Notes under the pieces: generated by a model
The model's database searches: none
What the model saw: only the letters and a program-made list of their open reading frames with translations
What the model was told of the DNA's origin: nothing
Position numbers and translations under genes: made by a program
Source of the DNA: an uncultured virus (IMG/VR IMGVR_UViG_3300047510_001006)
Taxonomy: Duplodnaviria; Heunggongvirae; Uroviricota; Caudoviricetes
Length of the DNA stretch: 20,000 nucleotides
Reading direction: 5' to 3' (one strand)
Virus record (IMG/VR): IMGVR_UViG_3300047510_001006
Shown here: positions 306 to 20,000 of the stretch, one piece after another
Layout of the letters: each line of letters begins with the position of its first letter
Numbering within the stretch: position 1 is the stretch's first letter

Positions 306-331
306 TTTTTGTTAAATATTGAGTATATTTG
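302..331 (+). promoter_or_regulatory. Bacteroidota-type sigma70 promoter (-33 TTG, -7 TAnnTTTG)
   Basis: TTG 302-304, 19-nt spacer, TATATTTG 324-331, then 4 nt to ATG 336. Confidence 0.7.
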
Positions 332-335
332 TATT

Positions 336-932
336 ATGGCTTATGTCTACAGACATATTAGATTAGATGAGAATTTACCTTTCTATATTGGTATAGGAAG
401 TGACGAATCGTTTAGTAGATCTAGAGAAAGATGTAGAAGAAGTGAGCTGTGGAATAAAATTGCAGCAAAGACAGAATACAGAGTAGAGATTCTATTTGAT
501 GATTTGACCTGGGAAGAAGCAAAGCAAAAAGAAATAGAATTTATTGCATTATACGGTAGGATAGATAAAGGACTTGGGTCATTAACCAATCTTACTGACG
601 GTGGAGAGGGGACGCTTGGTGTAATTGTAAGTAAAGAAAAAAGAGAATTATTCAGTAGAGTACATAGCGGGAAGGTAACTTCTCCTGAAGTAAGAAAAAA
701 AATTAGCGATACTTTAAAGTCAAAACCTAAAGACGAAGAAAGAATAGCTAAATTTATAAAGGATGCTTTGGTATATTCTAAAAGCATTAGAAAAAAAGTA
801 CTTTGTTTAGATAACGGAATGGTTTTTGATTCTGCTACAGAGGCAGGAGTTTACTTCGGAATAACTAGAACTGCCATTAGTAGACAAATAACCGGAGTGA
901 GAAAAAATAAACACAATTTGAAACACGTATAA
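336..932 (+). CDS. Free-standing GIY-YIG-like homing endonuclease with NUMOD3/NUMOD1-type C-terminal DNA-binding modules
   Basis: YVYRH...FYIGIG...R...E...LTNLTDGGEG catalytic-domain pattern, basic EVRKKIS segment, C-terminal KKVLCLDNGMVFDSATEAGVYFGI. ATG 336 preferred over TTG 309 because it follows the promoter. Confidence 0.8.
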   Translation: MAYVYRHIRLDENLPFYIGIGSDESFSRSRERCRRSELWNKIAAKTEYRVEILFDDLTWEEAKQKEIEFIALYGRIDKGLGSLTNLTDGGEGTLGVIVSKEKRELFSRVHSGKVTSPEVRKKISDTLKSKPKDEERIAKFIKDALVYSKSIRKKVLCLDNGMVFDSATEAGVYFGITRTAISRQITGVRKNKHNLKHV

Positions 933-9066: not shown

Positions 9067-9074
9067 CAAATATA
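9067..9074 (-). promoter_or_regulatory. Bacteroidota -7 promoter element
   Basis: TATATTTG on the minus strand, then TACT-ATG (9062), the same spacing as at 324-336. No clear -33 TTG. Confidence 0.55.
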
Positions 9075-9295
9075 AGGTTTAACCTTACAGGTTTACTATA
9101 AAGCACCCAAAAGGGTACGAAAATGAGCCATATAAGACACTTTATGTGCGTGTTGTGTAGAATTTGTATGATTTATTCATCATTAATGCATTTTGATGCA
9201 CTAATGAACGACAAAACCCACACTACGGTCAAATAATGTGGGTCTTCTCGGATAATTACCGAACTATGTCCAGTAAATTTACATAAAAACTGGAC
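9073..9295. repeat. Cluster of short inverted repeats/hairpins
   Basis: TAAGGTT-T-AACCTTA 9073-9087; GCACCC-AAAA-GGGTAC 9103-9118; TCATTAATGCAT-TTTG-ATGCACTAATGA 9180-9207; ACCCACACTA-N8-TAATGTGGGT 9216-9243; TCGG-ATAATTA-CCGA 9248-9262; GTCCAGT-N14-ACTGGAC 9268-9295. Confidence 0.8.
9211..9245 (-). terminator. Probable intrinsic terminator downstream of nrdJ
   Basis: Minus strand ACCCACATTA-tttgaccg-TAGTGTGGGT (10-bp stem with one G-U pair) followed by TTTGT. The U-tract is short. Confidence 0.5.
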
Positions 9296-11155
9296 TTACG
9301 ACACCTCACATCCCGCACCACCACAAGCGGCTTGGTCATTGAGCTTTGTGTTGTCGCTAATTTCTACAATATTTGCGACATTAAGTTCAGATAGTCCCTT
9401 GCTTAATGTTGTGTATTGTTCCTCAGTAATCGTCTCAAATGGAGTCTGTTGGTATGAACCCAAATCCTCAGGAAGAAAAGAGAGACCGTTGTAGAAGTTT
9501 TGATTCTCCCACAACCACTCGCCTACTTCTGCCCACTCGTCTTGCTTGATGGTTACAGTTGCGCTTACGTTGTGTGTATTGTTTCCTTTCTTGTGTCCTG
9601 GATTAATCCAATTCTCATGTAAGTACTTTACCCTTTCCAAAAATGACAGGGCGGTCTCAGACTCTCTTGTAATTGCTCCCTTTGGTGCAGCAACAGGAAT
9701 AGAGATAACCGATTGAGATTGAGGCTTCATAACATCGTCCTCAAGAAGTTCAGGATGGTAAAGAGAAAGGTATGTGTATATCGCCTCGTTTTTACCTACA
9801 CGTATTCTACGAATGTAATACTCATCATGCCAAGCATGTACGCCCGATGATGTACCGAGTACCAAAGAAGAAGTTCCCGATGGTTTCACGCAAGTAATAC
9901 GAGCGGCAGAGTTGATTCCAATCTTATTGGCAAACCACTCGTTTGCTACAGCAGCAAATCCTGCGGCCTCACCCAAATCTAATTTCATAACTGCTCCACT
10001 AGCAATACCTGTCATACCAATTCCAAGTAACGCTTCTTTCTCAGTAGTCTTTTGCCAAACTGAACGCAAGTAATGAAAATCAGTGTATGATGCCTGAAGA
10101 GTACCAATAACAGCAGCGTGATGAACACGAGTATTCAAATCGTCTTGATCAACAATGTCAGAAGCGTTTACTTCTACCAAGTTACAAAACTGAAACGGTT
10201 GAAGTGCAATCTCACAACAAGGGTTAGTTCCCATATTTACATCGTTAGAGAAGTAAAACCCAGGCTCACCACTATTACTCAACTCAACCTTTTTCCAAAG
10301 ATTTAAGAAAGACTCCTTATCAACTACTCCATTTCTCTCAATGACTGCGCTGTTGTTAGCACGACCACGCTGAGGATTCAACTCCCACCAATTACCAAAC
10401 TTGCAGGTCAACATATCCTCATCATTATAATCAAACAAGGCAATCATTGCAGATCTACGAATACCACCGCTCAATACAGCATCAGCAATGTGACAAAGGA
10501 TATCGTGACAATCAACCGATGTCAATCTTTCTCCGTCTTGCTTGCGGTCAAATATAGCCTCAATGTGAACTAAGCACATCTTCAACGGCTCAGGACCAGG
10601 AGCGATGCCTCCACCTGTTTTAATTGGTTCTCCCTTTGCGCGGATAGAACGGTAATCAAAGTTAGGCTTCCAACCACTCTGTCCAAAGTAAGCCTTAACC
10701 AATACTTTTACTGCATCTGCCCAACCCTCAAGAGAATCACCCACCAAATATCTACGGGTCTTTTCTGCTCTTTTGACTGCGGGAAGTTTGTCAATGTCGT
10801 GCTTTTGTACTGAGTACCCAACTCCTGTTCCACTCAATAGTAGGAACATCGTTTCGTTGAACGCTCTGTAATCGTCTATTGGCAAATAAGAACAGTTGAA
10901 TAGTCTTGTGTTATTTAATTCGATTGGCTTTCCACCAAATTGAAGTGACCGCATAGAAGGAAGTATCTTTTTATCGTAAACATACTGATATGCCCTTTCA
11001 ATTGTTTCCGTGTGTTCGGGAAACTTGCGCAAGTGCATTTCTTTGTTTCTATCCACGAGCTCTTTCCAAGTCTCTCTTCTTTGTTTTTCTGGATTGTACT
11101 TGGCATATTTCATCCAAACTGTAATGTCCGATAATATTTTATGTTCCGTATTCAT
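9296..11155 (-). CDS. nrdJ: Class II (adenosylcobalamin-dependent) ribonucleotide reductase, monomeric RTPR-like
   Basis: PSMRSLQFGG, FNCSY, GTGVGYSV, GGIRRSAMI, TNPCCEI (thiyl Cys), FCNL, TCVKPSGT and the C-terminal redox pair ACGGAGCEV. No terminal YY pair and no neighbouring beta subunit. Confidence 0.92.
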   Translation of the reverse strand: MNTEHKILSDITVWMKYAKYNPEKQRRETWKELVDRNKEMHLRKFPEHTETIERAYQYVYDKKILPSMRSLQFGGKPIELNNTRLFNCSYLPIDDYRAFNETMFLLLSGTGVGYSVQKHDIDKLPAVKRAEKTRRYLVGDSLEGWADAVKVLVKAYFGQSGWKPNFDYRSIRAKGEPIKTGGGIAPGPEPLKMCLVHIEAIFDRKQDGERLTSVDCHDILCHIADAVLSGGIRRSAMIALFDYNDEDMLTCKFGNWWELNPQRGRANNSAVIERNGVVDKESFLNLWKKVELSNSGEPGFYFSNDVNMGTNPCCEIALQPFQFCNLVEVNASDIVDQDDLNTRVHHAAVIGTLQASYTDFHYLRSVWQKTTEKEALLGIGMTGIASGAVMKLDLGEAAGFAAVANEWFANKIGINSAARITCVKPSGTSSLVLGTSSGVHAWHDEYYIRRIRVGKNEAIYTYLSLYHPELLEDDVMKPQSQSVISIPVAAPKGAITRESETALSFLERVKYLHENWINPGHKKGNNTHNVSATVTIKQDEWAEVGEWLWENQNFYNGLSFLPEDLGSYQQTPFETITEEQYTTLSKGLSELNVANIVEISDNTKLNDQAACGGAGCEVS

Positions 11156-11165
11156 AAGTTAATAA

Positions 11166-13019
11166 TTAAAAAAGTGTTAGTTGTTGTGGTTCAATTTCAT
11201 CAATAATCTTTTTGCATTCGATACCGAAGAAATGATAATCTATTTGGTAATCTTCCCAGTTTTCTTTCTCCTCGAAGTAGTTACACTCTCGTGCAAATCC
11301 TCCTGCCAAAAGGCTATTGAGTCGTCCGTCAACATTTTGTTTGAACACGGAATCACCCGTTGTAGTTGGAAGAAAGCGCATAACTTTGCCAAGATTCTTG
11401 ATAACCTTTTTACCTTCCTCAACCGTGTGGACTTCTGCATGCCAACCCCTAGTCGCCTTATATCTTCCGAAAAAATCATAAATGTTACGTGCATCAAAGA
11501 TAGTATTTTTTATTGGAATTTTAGATACGAAATACTTCTCTAACGCCTTTGGTACAATCAGGTAAGAGTTGTCTTTATGCCAGTCTTTTTCTGTTTCAAA
11601 GATGCCTTTTTTCTTGACCTTGCCTTCAACTGACTCGGCTAAATAGTTATTAACATCTCGTATGACCATTTGTTTATACTTGCTGTCTTCAAGAATCAAC
11701 CCCGTGAGTTTCATGAATCGCTGATTTATCTCCTCGATTCTTGCGATGCTGTTCTTGTGTACTCTTACTGTGAGACCATCTGTATTGATCTGTAACAGTT
11801 GAACATTCTTTACGTTTGTCATGTATGCCTCAGCCAGCATTGTAAGTAAGAGTTGTCCGTTAACTGTAATCCGATAGAAATAATACCTATCAAAGAAAGC
11901 ACTTGTTGATTCTCCTGTCTTTCCAAAGATTCCATTCAGTGCAAGTTTTAATCCTGCTTGAACAACATCATCTCCTGCCTTCTGTGCCTCCACTCGGTCA
12001 TCGAATATTCTTTTGTAAGTATTGATGAATACTTCTTGAGGTATGTGCTTGGGGTGAAAGTTATTTGTGATGGCGATGTTTGGGTAATAAGACTTTACGT
12101 CAAAGTCAATAATCTCATGCTCGTCATCGGCTTCGTATTTGCCCGCAGGAATACATCCGTGAATGCCGCCTACTCCGTAGTGAAAGTGAAAGCCCTTGAA
12201 TATTACGGTGTGTTTGAACTTTGTATCCTCGGTTACTACGGTTCTCTTAATTGAATCCAATAGGTATTTGAATTCTTTATTCTGAAACTTGATGTAAGGA
12301 ATAACACAATCTTCTAAGTAAACAGCCTTGTCATAGCGAACTTTTTCTTTCAAGTCTTTCTTATCTAATCCACTGGCTGCCTTGATGTATCGTAGGAAGA
12401 TTTCTTCTCCTATTGAAACATCGGGTCTGTTCAAGAAGTTAGCTTTGTACATCTTTGAGAATGCACGACGAAACTCTATCTTCTCACTACAAAGGAAGTA
12501 GAACTTACGAGTAGAAAGAACATCGTTTAAGTTGTAAGACAAAACAGATTCAACTTGGTCTTCGGTAATCTCCTGCTCGTGGCTGATGGGCATCTCTTGC
12601 ACATTGTACCAACCCATAGCAACCTGTAAGGACTTGAGCGAGGTACGTCTAGCCTTGTTGTTGTAGTGATTAATTAAGTAGAGGTCGAGTTGATTCTTCA
12701 TCTTAGTCCGTGGCTTTTCGTTATCTTCCTTTGTGATAAACTGTTGCACGAATATGTAAATCGAATATGCTACATTGTGACCCGGCATGTCCTTGTATCT
12801 GTCGAGGTTGTCAACGATGTGGTCCAACACAACAGCATCAAATCCTACGTTATTAAAGCCAACCATTGTCATTGGCTGATCGAGATACTCAACCAACTTT
12901 TCTGCATCGTTATTCCAAGGCGAGATTGTGAATACGACTGGGGTCTCAGAATCCTCTTCTATATCCGTATAGGAGAAGAAGTTCCTCATTGTTTCAATAT
13001 CATAGATTACTGTTCTCAT
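11166..13019 (-). CDS. polB: Family B DNA polymerase with 3'-5' exonuclease
   Basis: Exo I YDIET, Exo II GFNNVGFD, Exo III YNLNDV; Pol motifs DFDVKSYYP, KLALNGIFGK, QINTDG. Confidence 0.92.
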   Translation of the reverse strand: MRTVIYDIETMRNFFSYTDIEEDSETPVVFTISPWNNDAEKLVEYLDQPMTMVGFNNVGFDAVVLDHIVDNLDRYKDMPGHNVAYSIYIFVQQFITKEDNEKPRTKMKNQLDLYLINHYNNKARRTSLKSLQVAMGWYNVQEMPISHEQEITEDQVESVLSYNLNDVLSTRKFYFLCSEKIEFRRAFSKMYKANFLNRPDVSIGEEIFLRYIKAASGLDKKDLKEKVRYDKAVYLEDCVIPYIKFQNKEFKYLLDSIKRTVVTEDTKFKHTVIFKGFHFHYGVGGIHGCIPAGKYEADDEHEIIDFDVKSYYPNIAITNNFHPKHIPQEVFINTYKRIFDDRVEAQKAGDDVVQAGLKLALNGIFGKTGESTSAFFDRYYFYRITVNGQLLLTMLAEAYMTNVKNVQLLQINTDGLTVRVHKNSIARIEEINQRFMKLTGLILEDSKYKQMVIRDVNNYLAESVEGKVKKKGIFETEKDWHKDNSYLIVPKALEKYFVSKIPIKNTIFDARNIYDFFGRYKATRGWHAEVHTVEEGKKVIKNLGKVMRFLPTTTGDSVFKQNVDGRLNSLLAGGFARECNYFEEKENWEDYQIDYHFFGIECKKIIDEIEPQQLTLF

Positions 13020-14709
13020 CGAATGTTAAATAGCTTTGTGAATAAAGGATATCAAGTAGTCGTTCAAATCTACCATCTTCCGAATAGCGTCCTGTTAATT
13101 TATCAAAATTGTATTCTACTGAACCAAGTTGTCCTCTGAAGTGATACTTCATCTTCTGTACGTGTAACGATACAGTGTGGTCTTGTGCTTGGTCTGTGTA
13201 ATCTCTATGTATTGCAATACCCACATCAGGAGCATTGAAGAAGTGAGAACTCTGTGCAATATCATACAGCCTCGGTACAGCATACTGACCATTGCTCTTC
13301 TCCATCTTGCGAGGGTGAGCAGCCAATGTGATATTGATGTTGTATTTCAACGCTGTCTTTTTCATCTTACGAAGCATCTCACCGATTCTTTCGTGGGCAC
13401 TCTCTTCTTTGCTTTGAGTGTCGATGTAGTTGAACGGGTCAATACACAAACAATCAATTCCGTATCGTTTAATCATCGTAACGGTCAAGTCTAATATGTG
13501 ATTGAGGCTAAACTCTTCCATCTCTTCTACGTTAAAGAAGAAGAAGTGCTTGTCCAACTTAGCCATGATAACCTTAATCTCTTCGGGTGTTATAGTTGAC
13601 AACGCTTTACCTGAGATTTGTTCAGCCATACGAGAAAGTTTGAGAGGTGCTACGTTCTCAGGTGAGAAGATTGCAAACTTCCAATCAGATATAATCGCAA
13701 GACGTGCGTACATGTAGTCCAACCAAGTACTCTTACCTGAACCTGGCACGCCCGTAAGTACTACGAGTTCACCCTTGTTCCAAGTCAAGTGCTTGTCTGT
13801 CTGAGTCATAGCGACAGTTTCACCTCTTGGGTAGCCACTTTTTGAGAAGTCAACAACTTGCTGAATATAATCAGACGAGCGTGCTATCTCCTTAATTGGG
13901 ATGGGTTGGGCCTCAGAATATAACTTCTTAATGGCTTCTACTCCGTGTGCCTTGAGTACATCATTAGCATCCTTAGCATCTTCAGGGAACTGAATTATAA
14001 AAACATTTGATTGATCAAATCGTCTCGCAAGGTCTTCCTTGAGTTTTTGTCCCGGAGTATCATTGTCAGCCGCAATAATAATCTTTTTGTTTTCAAAATG
14101 AGAATACGTATCATCTAACCATTGTAAATTGTTAACTCCTTTGCTTGCTCCGTTGGGACAAGAGACAGCGAAGGGATATCCTGCTTGATACCAAACCATT
14201 GCTTCTTCTTCTCCTTCACAGATAATAATCTCACTGCTGTCTTTGATTCCATTTAGATTGTAGGGGATTTTCTTTGCTCCACTAACCATCTTGAACTTCT
14301 TGTCTGACGTTTTGAATTTTATATTTACCAATTCGTCTCCGTCATAGTAATTAAAGCAAATGACCTTGTGTTTCTGCTCATCTTGTGGCATCCACTCAAC
14401 TGACATCGAGACACCAAAGGCATCTACAGTTTCCTGCGAAATGCCTCTGGACTCGAAGTATTTAGTCACTCTGCTATCGGGTGCATCTTTCTTGGGTTCG
14501 GGCTTGGTGTATTGCTTTACATTAGCTACAGAACCTTTCTTTTGGCAATGGTGACACTTGAATAGTCCCTCATCTATGTTTACAGAGAGTGATGGGTCTG
14601 AGGCCTTCTTTCTTGTGTGGGCACACCAAGGACACTGTGTCTTGATGATTCCACTGAAGTGTCCTTTAGTATCAATGCCGGCTTTTGTTAATTCAGATTG
14701 GTAACTCAT
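13000..14709 (-). CDS. Bifunctional primase-helicase (T7 gp4/Twinkle-like)
   Basis: Zn finger CPWC...CHHC; TOPRIM ICEGEEEA, ADNDTPG, KDAND; SF4 helicase GVPGSGKST, IDPFN, AHPRK. Confidence 0.92.
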   Translation of the reverse strand: MSYQSELTKAGIDTKGHFSGIIKTQCPWCAHTRKKASDPSLSVNIDEGLFKCHHCQKKGSVANVKQYTKPEPKKDAPDSRVTKYFESRGISQETVDAFGVSMSVEWMPQDEQKHKVICFNYYDGDELVNIKFKTSDKKFKMVSGAKKIPYNLNGIKDSSEIIICEGEEEAMVWYQAGYPFAVSCPNGASKGVNNLQWLDDTYSHFENKKIIIAADNDTPGQKLKEDLARRFDQSNVFIIQFPEDAKDANDVLKAHGVEAIKKLYSEAQPIPIKEIARSSDYIQQVVDFSKSGYPRGETVAMTQTDKHLTWNKGELVVLTGVPGSGKSTWLDYMYARLAIISDWKFAIFSPENVAPLKLSRMAEQISGKALSTITPEEIKVIMAKLDKHFFFFNVEEMEEFSLNHILDLTVTMIKRYGIDCLCIDPFNYIDTQSKEESAHERIGEMLRKMKKTALKYNINITLAAHPRKMEKSNGQYAVPRLYDIAQSSHFFNAPDVGIAIHRDYTDQAQDHTVSLHVQKMKYHFRGQLGSVEYNFDKLTGRYSEDGRFERLLDILYSQSYLTFDENSNL

Positions 14710-14712
14710 AAT

Positions 14713-15057
14713 TTATATTATGAATTCGCGTTGTCCTCTTACGGGAAACTTCCAAGTTTTGATTGCTGCTTTCCAGCTTTTCATTTTGTTCTTCCCAATC
14801 ATCCATCCTTTTGATTCATAGAAGTTCCAAAACTTCTCTGCTTCTTGTTGGTAGTTTAGTACGTTTAATGAGTTGAGATACAGCGCAATCTCTTCCATTG
14901 TTGGTGGCTGAAATCTTTTGGTTAAGGTCTCAGATTCCTCTATCTTTTCAGACAAAGAATAAAACAGGTCATCCAAGTGAGACCACTCTCCTTTTGTTTC
15001 TTTCTCAATCAATCCCTTCAGGATTAATTTAATAATTTGATAGTCTTCGTTTTTCAT
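14713..15057 (-). CDS. Replication-associated protein (C-terminal domain of phage replication initiators)
   Basis: FQPPTMEEI...AEKFWNFYESKGWMIGKNKMKSWKAAIKTW motif; immediately upstream of the primase-helicase. Confidence 0.6.
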   Translation of the reverse strand: MKNEDYQIIKLILKGLIEKETKGEWSHLDDLFYSLSEKIEESETLTKRFQPPTMEEIALYLNSLNVLNYQQEAEKFWNFYESKGWMIGKNKMKSWKAAIKTWKFPVRGQREFII

Positions 15058-15074
15058 TTTAATTAGTTTTTGGT

Positions 15075-15302
15075 TTAATCGAAACTCACTCCGTTGTTGG
15101 TCATAATCTGTCCAAAGTCATCTCTTAGTTTATACAGAGCTTCTACTACCTTCTCGTCATCTTCATCGGATGCATACTTAGTACGTCTTCTAAGTTCTTG
15201 GTCCATGTCCCAACATACTGAATACCATTTAAATGCGTTAACAGCCAGTTCAAAGTCTGATCTTTCTTCGTTTAAGTCAAATATTAGTTGTCCTTGTGCC
15301 AT
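15075..15302 (-). CDS. Conserved phage hypothetical protein
   Basis: 75-aa ORF (LIFDLNEERSDFELAVNA...WDMDQELR), co-oriented and tightly packed. Confidence 0.7.
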   Translation of the reverse strand: MAQGQLIFDLNEERSDFELAVNAFKWYSVCWDMDQELRRRTKYASDEDDEKVVEALYKLRDDFGQIMTNNGVSFD

Positions 15303-15637
15303 AATTTGTATGTGCTATTACGGGTTTTAAACTTAATGTAATTATCTTCTTGTTCGAGTATCTCTGTGATATCTGTAGTCATCCAAGTAAAAAAATCATT
15401 GAAGGGCGACATTAGCAAAGAACGCCCAACCTCAGGCTCGCTGTGTCTGTCCTTGCTCCGACCGTCTTCATTCCATTCCAGCCACATGATGTCTTTTGAC
15501 TTTTTGGTGAGTCCGTCATGTTCACGGACTAACTTCCATTTAAATTCGTTTTCAATCACTCCTTGCTCGATAGCAATCTTCAAGACATTGTCTTCCGTCA
15601 ATGTCATTGGTATTTTAGTTTGTTTTATCTTGCTCAT
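15284..15637 (-). CDS. Hypothetical protein
   Basis: 117-aa ATG ORF in the minus-strand run. Confidence 0.7.
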   Translation of the reverse strand: MSKIKQTKIPMTLTEDNVLKIAIEQGVIENEFKWKLVREHDGLTKKSKDIMWLEWNEDGRSKDRHSEPEVGRSLLMSPFNDFFTWMTTDITEILEQEDNYIKFKTRNSTYKLWHKDN

Positions 15638-15640
15638 TGT

Positions 15641-15778
15641 TTAAAAGTTATCATTAAGGTAATCAGCAAATCTCTTCGCCCATATTTCTTTTTCAAAACT
15701 GCACACCAATTCTTGTTCAAAATAAACCCGCCAAACAAATGCTCCGTTTACGGTGGCTTTCACGATTCTTGCTTTCAT
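15641..15778 (-). CDS. 45-aa hypothetical protein
   Basis: MKARIVKATVNGAFVWRVYFEQELVCSFEKEIWAKRFADYLNDNF fills the gap with 3-nt spacers on both sides. Confidence 0.65.
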   Translation of the reverse strand: MKARIVKATVNGAFVWRVYFEQELVCSFEKEIWAKRFADYLNDNF

Positions 15779-15781
15779 GCT

Positions 15782-16132
15782 TTAGGTTAATAGGTCTTTA
15801 AACTTTTTTCTTTTGTCAACAACGGATGTTCTGTGTTTCTCCTTGTCAAGTTCAGGTACTCGTTTAATCATGCTTTCTTGCAGGATATCTGATGAACTCG
15901 TTTCGAGGAAGTCTACAAAGGTAATGTATTTTGATAGCTCTGTCCAAGTAGATTTTCTAATTACTTCTGATGCTTTTTCATAACTAGCCGAATCGTCATA
16001 AACCATTTTGTCGCTGACTATATCTGATAGCATATCAGTACGATATCGTAGATAATCATCATCGGTTATCTCAAAAATAAATCCACTGGGAGTGTAGATT
16101 AATATCTTTTCCCATTCAAATGAGTCCTTCAT
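15782..16132 (-). CDS. Acidic hypothetical protein
   Basis: 116-aa ATG ORF overlapping the recombinase stop. Confidence 0.65.
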   Translation of the reverse strand: MKDSFEWEKILIYTPSGFIFEITDDDYLRYRTDMLSDIVSDKMVYDDSASYEKASEVIRKSTWTELSKYITFVDFLETSSSDILQESMIKRVPELDKEKHRTSVVDKRKKFKDLLT

Positions 16133-16811
16133 ATATTGTGTTGTTTAGTATTTTGGTTATTGTTGTTGATTCTATTCTGCCACCCTTCTTGCCTTTGACT
16201 CCTTGTTTGTTTAACTCACGGGCTATGTCTTTGAAAGTGAGGCCTCCCTCCCTTAAATCGTAAACCGTCTTTACTATCTTCATCTCACTATCATCAGGTA
16301 TTAGTTTCCCTTCGACTTTATGAAAGCCCAATGGAGTAACGCCACAATAAACCTTGCGTTCTTTCTTGAGGTGTGACATAACACTTGTGATAAGTTCTCC
16401 TCTTTGATTGGATTCAAACTCAGCAAACGCTGCAATCATCTGAAGCATAAGTTTACCGTGAGAGGTACGAGTATCTACTTGAAAGTCCTGTGTATAGAAC
16501 GCTACGTCTTTCTTTTCGAGGAAGTCAATCCACTTGAGAGTATCCTTTAGGTTCCTACCGAATCGCGATAGGCTATACACAGCAACCACATCAATCTTCT
16601 TTTGTTCAGCCAACTTAATCATCTTCATGAACTCAGGGCGATTCTCAAATCTTTTACCTGATACGCCTGGGTCTGAGAACTGATAACGAATCTCGTAGTC
16701 GTTCATCTTACAGAACGCATTAAGTTTTTCTAACTGATTGTCTAACGATGAACCGTCTTCAACTTGGTCAACGTGCGACACTCTCGTGTATATCGCTGCT
16801 ACTTTCTTCAT
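16116..16811 (-). CDS. Serine recombinase (resolvase catalytic domain plus short recombinase-type DNA-binding domain)
   Basis: AIYTRVS (catalytic Ser), SLDNQ, DPGVSGK, RPEF, SLSRFGR, FAEFE; C-terminal PLGF...IARELN...TITKILNN; 231 aa. Confidence 0.9.
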   Translation of the reverse strand: MKKVAAIYTRVSHVDQVEDGSSLDNQLEKLNAFCKMNDYEIRYQFSDPGVSGKRFENRPEFMKMIKLAEQKKIDVVAVYSLSRFGRNLKDTLKWIDFLEKKDVAFYTQDFQVDTRTSHGKLMLQMIAAFAEFESNQRGELITSVMSHLKKERKVYCGVTPLGFHKVEGKLIPDDSEMKIVKTVYDLREGGLTFKDIARELNKQGVKGKKGGRIESTTITKILNNTIYEGLI

Positions 16812-17154
16812 TTTTAGTTTGCTTTTCTTTTAATTTTCCAATTGATGATTTGATGATTTGATTCATAATTGTATTGTAGTCAACCCCAATGGTGTTGGCG
16901 TATGCAGCCAGTGTTGTTGAGTTTCTTCGGGTCATTGTAACATTGAGTAACTTGTTAGGCTTTCTTTTTGCGAATGCCTTTCTAGATAATCTAACTCTGT
17001 GCTTGATGCAGTAGTAGTAAATCAAATCAGAAACCAAAACATCCACATCCCTGAAATCAAATTTATGTGCAATTTGATGCAGTTGATCGTACAATCCATT
17101 AGGGATACTGATGGTTGTTTGGTGTTTTGATTTTTGTTTTCTTACTTTCTCCAT
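16768..17154 (-). CDS. Putative DNA-binding protein with two ribbon-helix-helix-like units
   Basis: TTISIPNGLYDQLHQIAHK...VDVLVSDLI and LLNVTMTRRNSTTLAAYANTIGVDYNTIMNQII each fit a strand-helix-helix pattern. Confidence 0.5.
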   Translation of the reverse strand: MEKVRKQKSKHQTTISIPNGLYDQLHQIAHKFDFRDVDVLVSDLIYYYCIKHRVRLSRKAFAKRKPNKLLNVTMTRRNSTTLAAYANTIGVDYNTIMNQIIKSSIGKLKEKQTKNEESSSDIHESVAR

Positions 17155-17267
17155 CTTGTCCAGTATATCCAGAATCCCAATAGCCCAATGATTGTAAAGT
17201 CTACAATACAGGGTGCGAAGTCAGACCAAAAGTTCTTTAGTCTAATCAATAGTAAACGTAACCTCAT
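17142..17267 (-). CDS. 41-aa membrane peptide
   Basis: MRLRLLLIRLKNFWSDFAPCIVDFTIIGLLGFWIYWTRWRK bridges the two flanking minus-strand genes. Confidence 0.45.
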   Translation of the reverse strand: MRLRLLLIRLKNFWSDFAPCIVDFTIIGLLGFWIYWTRWRK

Positions 17268-17652
17268 TGTCTTTTATATTTATTTTGTTTACGATCATGT
17301 TATCCTCACACTGAAAGTAGTAGGCAAGATTAGAACCCAATGAAATGTATGGTCCTCCACTTGGGTCTACGAATTCAATCACATCATCCTTAGACTTGAC
17401 ATGCTTGGAGTATCGATTAAAGAAATCATAGTCTACTTCCATCTTTCTGTCAAACTCATCACGAGTAAGTTCCTTGTCTTTCTCTGTCTCGTTGGTCATG
17501 TAAACGATGTAGGCTGTGTCGTAATCGTTAGCAAAACCATAACGCATACCCATGTCAAGCATGCCTGTCATCTTAACCGTGGTTCCTTCTTTCTCGAAAC
17601 GAATGATATCGTTGTAACGATTACGTCTCTCAATTATTATATGATTATCCAT
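17242..17652 (-). CDS. Hypothetical protein
   Basis: 136-aa ATG ORF containing FVDPSGGPYISLG; A-rich upstream region. Confidence 0.7.
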   Translation of the reverse strand: MDNHIIIERRNRYNDIIRFEKEGTTVKMTGMLDMGMRYGFANDYDTAYIVYMTNETEKDKELTRDEFDRKMEVDYDFFNRYSKHVKSKDDVIEFVDPSGGPYISLGSNLAYYFQCEDNMIVNKINIKDNEVTFTID

Positions 17653-17695
17653 AAACTTTTTTTAATAAATAAATTGTTTTTAATTTTAATTTTGA

Positions 17696-17890
17696 TTAGA
17701 TTCTTGTGATTTCTGCTACTAATAAATTAACTAGTTCTTCACGAGTCAAATGCTCTTGGTCATACTTAGATACAATGGCAATCAAGTTTTCTTTTCTGTA
17801 TGTTGCGATTGACTTAACCAATTCTGCAAATGCATTCTCTGTGTTCTCGCTGAGCTTTTCTTTTTCTACTAGTTTGTTGTTGTTGTTCAT
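17696..17890 (-). CDS. Hypothetical protein
   Basis: 64-aa ORF, ATGA-coupled. Confidence 0.6.
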   Translation of the reverse strand: MNNNNKLVEKEKLSENTENAFAELVKSIATYRKENLIAIVSKYDQEHLTREELVNLLVAEITRI

Positions 17891-18111
17891 GAGTTTTCTT
17901 TTAGGTATTCGATTATTTTATCTTCTAGTCCGTTTGTTTTATCAAGGATGTGTTTGAGTGTATCCAATGATGAACTCTTGATGTGAGGGTGTTTAAACTC
18001 CTCTCCGTTCCAATAAGCAACGGTGTCTTCACGGTGAAACATGTTCCACAGTTGGCTGTATGGGTTGTAGTGAAACAACCAATCATACGTACTTTTGATC
18101 ATGATATTCAT
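17887..18111 (-). CDS. Hypothetical protein
   Basis: 74-aa ORF (YDWLFHYNPY), ATGA-coupled on both sides. Confidence 0.7.
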   Translation of the reverse strand: MNIMIKSTYDWLFHYNPYSQLWNMFHREDTVAYWNGEEFKHPHIKSSSLDTLKHILDKTNGLEDKIIEYLKENS

Positions 18112-18608
18112 TTGATTGATTTTAGGGTTTGTACATAACTAGGGTCAGCAGCATACGAACCATCAATCTTTTTGAGATAACGATTTTGTATGTGAATGTA
18201 ACACTTGATACAATCCCTATAAGAATTGTATTTGGCGTACACTCCATGCTTGCCGGCTACAAATTTACAATTGTGGTAGGTAATTCCAAATAAATTTTTT
18301 GCCTGCTGTCCTACATTTGATTTGCCGTGATTACTTTCTATCTTAGATTGTGCACATGCCATTGCTGCAAGTACTGCTCCGCTGTTTGTTAACTCAGCTG
18401 TAATGCCAGAGTCAGTTAACTTTACGTCTTGCTCTGAGACCTCAGTAACAACTTTGGTCTTGGTGATGTACAAAATCTTTTCAGGCAGTTGAGTGTAGTA
18501 GATTAAAGCCGCACCCAATAGAAAGTTAATTAATACCGATGTCCAAAATGCTTTGGTCATGTCTCTGTGGCGAACCAACTGTAGGTCCTCGTTAATTTTT
18601 AATATCAT
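18108..18608 (-). CDS. Membrane-anchored GH73/glucosaminidase-like peptidoglycan hydrolase
   Basis: N-terminal TM AFWTSVLINFLLGAALIYY; AQSKIESNHG (catalytic Glu), NLFGI, YAADPSY motifs. Confidence 0.8.
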   Translation of the reverse strand: MILKINEDLQLVRHRDMTKAFWTSVLINFLLGAALIYYTQLPEKILYITKTKVVTEVSEQDVKLTDSGITAELTNSGAVLAAMACAQSKIESNHGKSNVGQQAKNLFGITYHNCKFVAGKHGVYAKYNSYRDCIKCYIHIQNRYLKKIDGSYAADPSYVQTLKSIK

Positions 18609-18626
18609 AATTTTTATTTTAAGTAA

Positions 18627-18758
18627 TTAAGAAAGCCTATACAATAGAATAAAGATAAGCAGTAACCATCCTGTAATTGTTATTACAATAGATGCCGCGA
18701 AAGGATACGTTTCTGCAACCTTTTCGACACGAGTCCATACTTCTTTAATCTTCTTCAT
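18627..18758 (-). CDS. 43-aa single-TM peptide
   Basis: MKKIKEVWTRVEKVAETYPFAASIVITITGWLLLIFILLYRLS. Confidence 0.55.
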   Translation of the reverse strand: MKKIKEVWTRVEKVAETYPFAASIVITITGWLLLIFILLYRLS

Positions 18759-18861
18759 ATAAATCTTTGTAAACATAGTAATATCTATATATTGTGTCAG
18801 TTACTGCTGTTGATGTCCACGTTATTGTGTTCTCAACAAAGACTATTGTCATTAATGGCAT
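18745..18861 (-). CDS. Putative 38-aa peptide
   Basis: MPLMTIVFVENTITWTSTAVTDTIYRYYYVYKDLYEED directly follows a promoter-like element. Confidence 0.35.
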   Translation of the reverse strand: MPLMTIVFVENTITWTSTAVTDTIYRYYYVYKDLYEED

Positions 18862-18864
18862 GCA

Positions 18865-18895
18865 CAAATATATTACTTCTTTCTGTTTCTTACAA
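18865..18895 (-). promoter_or_regulatory. Bacteroidota-type promoter
   Basis: Minus strand TTG (18895-18893), 20-nt spacer, TATATTTG (18872-18865). Confidence 0.55.
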
Positions 18896-19070
18896 CTGTT
18901 TTTTGTTCTTTGAGTTCATCAAGTGTGAAATCAAATCCCTGGCTTGGGGTCTCACTCTCCCATCTATCTAAGATAGTAAGGATGTGAGCATACTTATCGT
19001 CGGAGTACATCATATGATGCACAAGCAGTGCGACAAGTTGTTTGCGTTGGTTGATGTCTAATCTTTTCAT
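18873..19070 (-). CDS. Hypothetical protein
   Basis: 65-aa ORF, ATGA-coupled. Confidence 0.65.
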   Translation of the reverse strand: MKRLDINQRKQLVALLVHHMMYSDDKYAHILTILDRWESETPSQGFDFTLDELKEQKTVVRNRKK

Positions 19071-19273
19071 TTGTCTTTTAATTCATTTTGTATTTTCCAT
19101 TCAATCAATTCCAATGCCCGTTTGTAACCTTCCCTATAACCATCGGCATAACTCATTTCCTTTCCTGCGATTTCCATTTCTTTGGCTTGTTTCCAATCTT
19201 CAACGGTTAAATCTCTATTATATGCAATTTCCCATAACCACTCCACTGCCGTCTGTTGTTTATTGTTTGTCAT
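19067..19273 (-). CDS. KQQTAVEWL-leader small protein
   Basis: MTNNKQQTAVEWL...KQAKEME; 68 aa. Confidence 0.75.
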   Translation of the reverse strand: MTNNKQQTAVEWLWEIAYNRDLTVEDWKQAKEMEIAGKEMSYADGYREGYKRALELIEWKIQNELKDK

Positions 19274-19478
19274 TGTTTGTGTCTTTAACCCAGTAAAAAT
19301 CTAATAAGGTTCTCATAAAGAATCTTTTAATAAAGTTAGGCTTACTATGTGTAGCAAATGCAATAGTATTTACTTTAATCTTACTGGATAAGCAATACCA
19401 TCCTACTATCTTTTTTGGTTTTGGTTGAGCGATAATTGTTCCTATATCTTCTAACCACTCTTTGCTAGTTTGTTTCAT
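19260..19478 (-). CDS. Small hypothetical protein with degenerate leader (MKQTSKEWL)
   Basis: 72-aa ORF; its stop lies inside the next repeat copy. Confidence 0.7.
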   Translation of the reverse strand: MKQTSKEWLEDIGTIIAQPKPKKIVGWYCLSSKIKVNTIAFATHSKPNFIKRFFMRTLLDFYWVKDTNNDKQ

Positions 19479-19502
19479 TTTCTTTTAGTTGTTTATTGTT
19501 TG

Positions 19503-19730
19503 TCATTTTGTTTGCTCCCTTGCGAAAATTTTAAATGTGTTTCCTTTACCATCACTAAATAAAATATTTGAATGAGATGTATTATCAAGTTTGATAATCA
19601 ATTCTTTTTCTCCTCCAATTGGTTTAGATATTAGTATTGGATTATCATCGTTGAATTGAAATACCCATTCTACATTGTCATAAGTTGCGATTCCGATTGT
19701 CACTGCCGTTTGTTGTTTATTATTTTCCAT
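19503..19730 (-). CDS. KQQTAV-leader small protein
   Basis: MENNKQQTAVTIGIATY...; ATG 19730 preferred over TTG 19739. Confidence 0.7.
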   Translation of the reverse strand: MENNKQQTAVTIGIATYDNVEWVFQFNDDNPILISKPIGGEKELIIKLDNTSHSNILFSDGKGNTFKIFAREQTK

Positions 19731-20000
19731 AGTTTTCAATTTCTTGTTTTACTTCTTCCCAATAGTTTGATAAATCCTCATCCTTGTCAACGGAGTTGAT
19801 ACTCAATATCTCATCAACTGCAATTAAGGCGTATTGCTTAGTCATTTTATCTATTAATTCTTTGGCTTTGTCCACTGCCGTTTGTTGTGTTTTATTTGTC
19901 ATCATAAGTAGTGTTGTTTTCAAATGTATTTCAGTGTCCATTTGTTTTTGGCACAGTTCAATGATAGAATCAACTGCCGTTGGTTGTTTATTATTTCTCA
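19720..20000 (-). CDS. Double-leader small protein (partial at window edge; internal start at 19902)
   Basis: Open frame (M)RNNKQPTAVDSIIELCQKQMDTEIHLKTTLLM-MTNKTQQTAVDKAKELIDK...ALIAVDEIL...YWEEVKQEIE. Confidence 0.7.
   Translation of the reverse strand, partial: RNNKQPTAVDSIIELCQKQMDTEIHLKTTLLMMTNKTQQTAVDKAKELIDKMTKQYALIAVDEILSINSVDKDEDLSNYWEEVKQEIENYGK

Follow-up and report, generated by a model that had tools for sequence, protein, structure and literature searches.

On comparative sequence evidence, the 30-nt leader that encodes MTNNKQQTAV appears to be a real exchange site in the small genes of an uncultured phage group, and in most cases it stops the gene upstream, whichever of the two shifted frames this gene is in. 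The swapping of genes at this site is well supported. The leader is probably a coding boundary sequence that is shuffled by short-homology recombination, and its two off-frame stop codons, which would be mainly a by-product, let out-of-frame joins survive.

The 140 distinct junctions among the matches listed combine 82 upstream clusters with 76 downstream clusters in 136 pairings. When two junctions have a downstream body in common, only 4 of 162 such pairs also share the upstream gene, compared with 2.7 ± 1.7 after shuffling and with 120 of 311 downstream-sharing pairs at control junctions (all among the matches listed). This near-random pairing bears out the earlier proposal that the leader joins interchangeable genes. 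Sequence identity tracks the upstream partner as far as nt -1; from nt 30 on, it tracks the downstream one. Conservation of the leader begins at its ATG and extends 29 nt into the coding sequence. The leader is conserved as DNA, with rare codons fixed in it: ACG for threonine stands at 92%, against 12% in general usage, at a base that was left free in the search. The bodies that follow are unrelated to each other and are not paralogs.

The leader copies and their setting

The window, the whole 20,000-nt stretch of viral DNA analysed here, carries tailed-phage genes for terminase, ribonucleotide reductase, DNA polymerase, primase-helicase, a serine recombinase and glucosaminidase. An ORF resembling homing endonucleases (phrog_314; 309-932, plus strand) lies directly 3' of a tail-like gene. 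Cultured phages yielded no match to the gene at 19067-19273 or to the terminase, and the window's DNA polymerase is at most 35% identical to those of cultured phages among the 15 matches listed. The nearest record, G001 (15.9 kb), is 98% identical to window positions 9213-19191 and lacks the full leader; the N-terminal half of the gene and the gene upstream of it both differ between the two.

TAnnTTTG is a Bacteroidota-type promoter element. It is not enriched in the window (26 occurrences versus 22.3 ± 4.7), and individual matches lie in intergenic gaps ahead of gene starts at 324, 1823 and 2358 on the plus strand and at 9074 and 18872 on the minus strand. The single GTDB match is near the end of a MAG contig and was set aside for host assignment. 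Start regions learned from related loci contain few G residues and have A at -3, -12 and -13, a profile that matches the start determinants reported for Flavobacterium johnsoniae (PMC6847099). Because of this match the host is probably a member of the Bacteroidota. The array of small genes that carries the leader is hypervariable, and the phages are probably a lytic-type freshwater group.

Five copies of the repeat family lie within 19242-20000 on the minus strand. In the direction of transcription, the first (19970..20000) is cut by the window end. The second (19873..19902) is the variant MTNKTQQTAV, which the upstream ORF enters in frame to give a fusion without a stop; the same in-frame fusion is present in L125. 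A cargo gene at 19720..19905 has a (TP)xEKAKEL...YWEEVKQEIE body behind the leader and matches phrog_21441, of unknown function. The third copy (19701..19730) is the variant MENNKQQTAV. It starts with ATG GAA and has no TGA in the +1 frame, where the first stop is at leader nt 29-31, and its TAA at nt 9-11 ends the upstream gene. This copy opens a 75-aa cargo gene with a TIGIATYDNVEW... body (19503..19730), which ends at the ATGA of a half-leader.

The half-leader has 19 nt of leader sequence, followed by the region where the MKQTSKEWL gene has its native start. It opens a 13-codon mini-ORF, MTNNKQLKENETN (19465..19506), that is entered via the ATGA overlap and stops 14 nt into the gene starting at 19478. 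The latter, a 72-aa cargo gene running from MKQTSKEWL to NNDKQ (19260..19478), is the next real gene after 19506, with its start 28 nt downstream. It ends with a 14-nt overlap at the TAA (19260..19262) of the full 30-nt leader (19244..19273), the reassortment site, which provides a start codon, TGA in the +1 frame at nt 2-4 and TAA in the +2 frame at nt 12-14.

A six-frame reading confirmed both stops in the MTNNK start on the minus strand, as well as three upstream ORF ends given in the preliminary description: ENYGK at 19720, EQTK at 19503 (through ATGA) and NNDKQ at 19260. The leader sequence quoted there for all three sites is found in the copies at 19273 and 19506, but not in the MENNK copy at 19730. 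Likewise, the copy at 19506 has the quoted start and makes use of its ATGA, but it matches the leader over its 19 nt only and opens a mini-ORF rather than a full gene. Because the stops are present, out-of-frame ORFs that enter the leader end inside it, and the testable part of the claim is how often genes run in.

The full leader begins a 68-aa gene of the TAVEW...AKEME family (19067..19273), with a predicted short helix followed by a long helix. The model of this parent family, based on 83 aligned sequences, has the same two helices, with residues 1-8 unstructured and a mean pLDDT of 82, and no function was obtained from Pfam, PHROGs, PDB or Atlas. The KQTAVEW...AKEME...YYNETY family (L001-L124) is very large, viral in Atlas and often tandem. 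The leader would have its origin in the N-terminal end of a single family of small helical proteins, and its copies would have been homogenised at the DNA level.

A second, weaker crossover site lies inside this gene at the QAKEME module (19172..19189). Pairs of genes sharing an N-half also have the same C-half in 16 of 65 cases, versus 4.5 after shuffling. QAKEME re-pairs N- and C-halves of small helical proteins at this position in the window and in L252, and G001 diverges just upstream of it.

Upstream gene ends and the two off-frame stops

Three IMG/VR samples were collected by the wider KQTAVEW motif (at least 124 stretches), by NNKQQTAV (at least 127) and by leader nt 15-31 alone (at least 124). 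Genes, including those used as controls, were called with a self-trained caller made for this analysis and run without an overlap bonus. Upstream tails were collapsed at 80% identity, which reduced leader junctions from 135 to 63 and controls from 903 to 549, and gaps of more than 60 nt were dropped (9 leader junctions and 124 controls).

The preliminary description had proposed counting, in related arrays, how often the upstream stop falls within the first 14 nt of the leader. Among the matches listed this is the case at 46 of 54 distinct junctions versus 192 of 425 controls (p = 1.2e-8), with tails that are phylogenetically dependent on one another and a leader that represents one lineage. 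Control junctions in the window have the stop in nt 1-14 in 13 of 27 cases, and the nearest controls, within 500 nt, in 47 of 90 (matches listed).

The rate of ATGA/TAATG overlaps, already high in the window, had been named as the background against which this count should be read. The total rate is above background, but these -4/-1 overlaps show no excess (18 of 54 versus 136 of 425, p = 0.88, matches listed). The whole excess is in the +2 frame, and overlaps of -8, -11 and -14 account for 27 of 54 leader junctions versus 50 of 425 controls (p = 4e-10, matches listed). Frame use at the leader is about even, with 19 +1 and 27 +2 ends versus 150 and 84 in controls (p = 0.005, matches listed).

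Both shifted frames are therefore in use, as had been claimed, and a single cargo family can end at -14 or at -4. Of 18 distinct loci with homologs of the gene at 19260-19478, 16 have a leader-type start next, 11 with the end at -14 and 5 at -4. For the gene at 19503-19730, 9 of 16 homologs have a leader or a half-leader behind them. The broader wording, that genes are terminated whatever their frame, holds for the two shifted frames but not for in-frame fusions (4 of 72 tails, and the copy at 19902) or for the 16 of 179 junctions, among the matches listed, that lack ATGA.

When nt 1-14 were left free in the scan, 99 of the 111 listed copies with an ATG contained both stops. The same scan, with nt 15-31 alone, gave 72 distinct tails among the matches listed: 47 end in nt 1-14 (22 in the +1 and 25 in the +2 frame), 6 end before the leader and 4 run on in frame, while the others comprise 8 unclear cases and 7 chance matches. 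It is not an independent replicate, because just 21 of these tails are new. Half-leaders also contain the upstream stop, in 50 of 67 listed cases.

Are the stops kept for what they do? In the reading that we favour, they would be an enabling property that is mostly given by the MTNNK peptide in an A-rich code and inherited with the copies. Synonymous recoding of MTNNK, which takes account of the peptide and of codon usage, yields both stops with a probability of 0.78-0.87. In a plain swap one stop is enough, because each cassette comes with its own set frame relative to the leader that follows; both stops are needed only at new joins or after tail indels. At such events, out-of-frame joins and tail indels survive with at most four added residues, because the first 14 nt stop both shifted frames. 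The even frame split, the rarity of in-frame fusions and the switching of frame within one cargo family fit this role.

A less likely alternative holds that the leader is a universal junction under selection, with its 5' 14 nt kept for stopping out-of-frame genes and for coupling and with the peptide incidental. The 5' half is indeed kept in all truncated forms. Among the matches listed, the two stops are far rarer at other starts, with 23% of 644 controls and, in the broader KQTAVEW family, 9 of 71 starts. Overlaps in that broader family are not in excess (39 of 78 versus 207 of 466, matches listed). Variants at nt 10-15 point both ways: eight listed variants that change the amino acid retain the +2 stop, four synonymous ones lose the TAA at nt 12-14, and two further ones lose residue and stop alike. 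These cases are too few to be more than suggestive with regard to selection for stops.

None of the 16 junctions with G at nt 4 follows a gene that needs the +1 stop, versus 74 of 163 other junctions (matches listed), a pattern that fits linkage as well as selection on the stops. Speaking against a selected junction, synonymous sites unrelated to the stops are about equally conserved (92% at nt 9 and 92% at nt 24, versus 97% at nt 12, values that are partly set by the search pattern), the MTNNK peptide itself predicts both stops, and the -14 position is outside the window described as indicative of coupling (PMC10666635). In its fullest form this alternative describes a recombinase-independent junction, selected as such, in which about 15 nt supply start, both stops and coupling, a further 15 nt supply homology and the last codon is swapped for an ATG; combined with QAKEME, this junction would let the phages assemble small proteins combinatorially, with expression of almost every new join. 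We regard this as possible but unlikely.

Could the stops simply reflect ordinary tight packing in an array of paralogs, with no relation to shuffling? The -4/-1 rate is at background, as such packing would have it. Overlaps of 1-14 nt are also common where non-leader starts come right after a leader gene (15 of 19) and where control starts follow a GG-rich array tail (29 of 36), and overlaps of any kind are just modestly commoner at the leader than at the nearest controls (47 of 54 versus 65 of 90, p = 0.04; all among the matches listed). However, tails without the GG motif still overlap in 32 of 39 leader junctions versus 160 of 385 controls (matches listed), the +2 frame is in fourfold excess, and the bodies are unrelated rather than paralogous. 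Tight packing is weakened by the frame split, and we consider it improbable.

A stop located from -8 to +6 of a start has been called indicative of termination-reinitiation (PMC10666635). Among the matches listed, 18 of 54 leader stops (-4/-1) are inside this range and 27, at -11/-14, are outside. As judged from these positions, the -4 class is a plausible candidate for translational coupling and the -14 class an uncertain one. Bacteroidetes are described as making little use of Shine-Dalgarno motifs, even at overlaps (PMC6728339). The suggestion that the leader would suit such a host agrees with the start profile and with the window junctions (Shine-Dalgarno use at 0 of 36), but a GGAGG/GAGGT-type motif is present at 13 of 63 listed leader starts. 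Among control starts, 30 of 198 that lie 1 kb or less from a leader have this motif too, versus 6 of 193 at 2-4 kb (matches listed). A GG-rich tail with an SD-like motif, ending in YGGGEQ or GGNK, comes before many array genes, although starts elsewhere are of the non-SD type, and is common to unrelated genes (L139:2780-2800, L151, L199 and others). In L129, L175, L195 and L199 the leader stands ahead of a lipoprotein-type signal peptide (KKLLLATLLIGMISGC), and either start could serve.

Break points and routes of exchange

Some bodies carry a native ATG exactly at the leader's last (Val) codon. These are the KLYTEEQ, TPQEKAK, KKLLLATLL and KKVLVFT bodies, which are also found leaderless. Among 245 distinct starts with the 5' half, 136 are full length and 109 depart from the leader at nt 14-28. 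Because of these departures the crossover is not fixed, and the half with the start and the stops is the constant part. Alleles at nt 4-6, 9, 21, 24 and 27 are tied to neither side, in a comparison of low power. The half-leader join of the window recurs in L381, L385 and L387 behind different upstream DNA; its apparent donor tail is present in L386, L388 and L390 and has about 9 nt in common with the leader. Another half-leader mini-ORF, MSNNKQ, is found in L432 and L433, where the upstream gene ends at -14 and the mini-ORF stops just before the next ATG. The leader peptide as a targeting tag is disfavoured, because the peptide is cut at 4-10 residues and can precede a lipoprotein-type signal peptide.

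Shuffling by short-homology recombination would explain these joins as follows. Recombination between leader copies, within or between phages, would produce the observed re-pairing of upstream with downstream genes. New cargo would be captured through microhomology joins: at the 3' end the last codon of the leader coincides with the captured gene's own ATG, as in the four bodies above, and at the 5' end an upstream gene could be joined to the leader start in any frame. In-frame fusions would be rarer than out-of-frame joins.

The enzyme would be a Sak4-like annealase, with its activity here predicted. Of five near-complete relatives, four contain an AAA_24 gene and one gave no hit, and both of the genes checked encode Sak4-like annealing proteins; annealing activity has been reported for Sak4 (PMC5928155). 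Neither ERF nor RecA was found in the five near-complete leader-bearing records. In G002 (L436:1273-1965 and 414-1253) and G003 (L437), the gene for the Sak4-like protein comes before one whose 279-aa product is acidic at its C-terminus. This pair, of which the second member is a possible cognate SSB, is located about 10 kb from the array.

All of the junction data come from metagenomic assemblies, where a 30-nt repeat could produce false joins, and it is conceivable that most of the apparent reassortment is misassembly. Several matches are near contig ends, and 73 of the 82 listed junction types are seen once. The other nine recur in a second contig, one of them in four contigs (matches listed), and this recurrence argues against pure misassembly. 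Furthermore, the variable break points create new in-frame joins that no assembler could invent, and the half-leader join recurs behind different upstream DNA. Misassembly is thus a very improbable source of most of the pattern.

Site-specific recombination at a fixed point of the leader, by an integron-type system or by the window's serine recombinase (231 aa, with Resolvase and Recombinase domains; 16116-16811, minus strand), would account for the sharp identity edges and for a recombinase gene about 2.4 kb from the array, but it can scarcely be sustained: this recombinase is found in none of five leader-bearing records, three of them near complete, so that it is refuted as a general mechanism; tyrosine integrase (PF00589) is found in none of five near-complete relatives, although a host integrase might act in trans; the leader folds into no stable hairpin (60-nt stretches give -0.5 to -7.2 kcal/mol) and has none of the 25 longest inverted repeats of the window; and break points are spread across nt 14-28 with internal polymorphisms linked to neither side. 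The serine recombinase sits in an otherwise lytic-looking gene set and has homologs in L131, L132, L184, L185 and L203.

With the leader, the way in which phage ORFan arrays are put together can be counted: linkage has all but vanished across a single coding site of 30 nt. The leader displays graft points on native start codons together with a built-in guard against read-through, and through it the old boundary-sequence proposal for phage mosaicism becomes open to testing in uncultured phages that are abundant. Should the stops turn out to be selected, the leader is a natural part for frame-independent gene stacking in hosts that do not rely on Shine-Dalgarno sequences. If they are not, the leader is a clear case of an accidental sequence property that enables shuffling.

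Relation to known systems

A search of the open-access literature found nothing on the leader or on the motifs QTAVEW, KQQTAV, MTNNKQ and QAKEMEK. Several described systems share parts of its behavior. The -4 class of leader junctions has the standard geometry of termination-reinitiation at ATGA/TAATG. In contrast, half of the junctions are at -11 or -14, positions that are several-fold rarer elsewhere and for which the accounts drawn on here establish no coupling (PMC6728339, PMC10666635).

Mycobacterial MIRUs, as summarised, are likewise repeats at gene starts in which a small ORF overlaps its neighbour, and the mini-ORF at 19465-19506 comes closest to this arrangement. However, MIRUs insert whole and are coupled at -4, whereas the leader normally stays fused as the N-terminus of its cargo (PMC12548453). 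The attC arrays of phage integrons are also arrays of interchangeable single-gene units; unlike these, as described, the leader array has no integrase, attC-like hairpin or fixed crossover point (PMC9892861).

The PeSLs of T4-like phages are reported as intergenic cassettes of promoter, stem-loop and SD sequence that end at a start codon (PMC2839356, PMC4122927). Leader and PeSLs are alike in being short repeats of a hypervariable region whose recombination swaps unrelated small ORFs, and in including the downstream start codon; comparative evidence indicates such ORF exchange between leader copies. They differ in that the leader begins at the start codon, is wholly coding and overlaps the end of the upstream gene. 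A search for sigma70-like promoters, which the host may not use, gave 12 matches versus 6.5 ± 2.4 in shuffled sequence, with a 9/12 match overlapping the copies at 19506 and 19703. No stem-loop terminator was found in 18600-20000, and folding of the leader is weak.

The leader also resembles the boundary sequences of phage mosaicism, which have similarly been proposed as short conserved sites at gene boundaries for homologous recombination (PMC3029335). The leader is such a short conserved sequence at a mosaic junction of unrelated genes, and its variable break points would fit exchange by general recombination, as would the Sak4-like gene, of predicted activity, that four of the five relatives carry. 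Compared with boundary sequences as summarised in that source, the leader stands out for its many copies per lineage, the near-complete unlinking of its neighbours, its grafts onto native ATG codons and its two off-frame stops.
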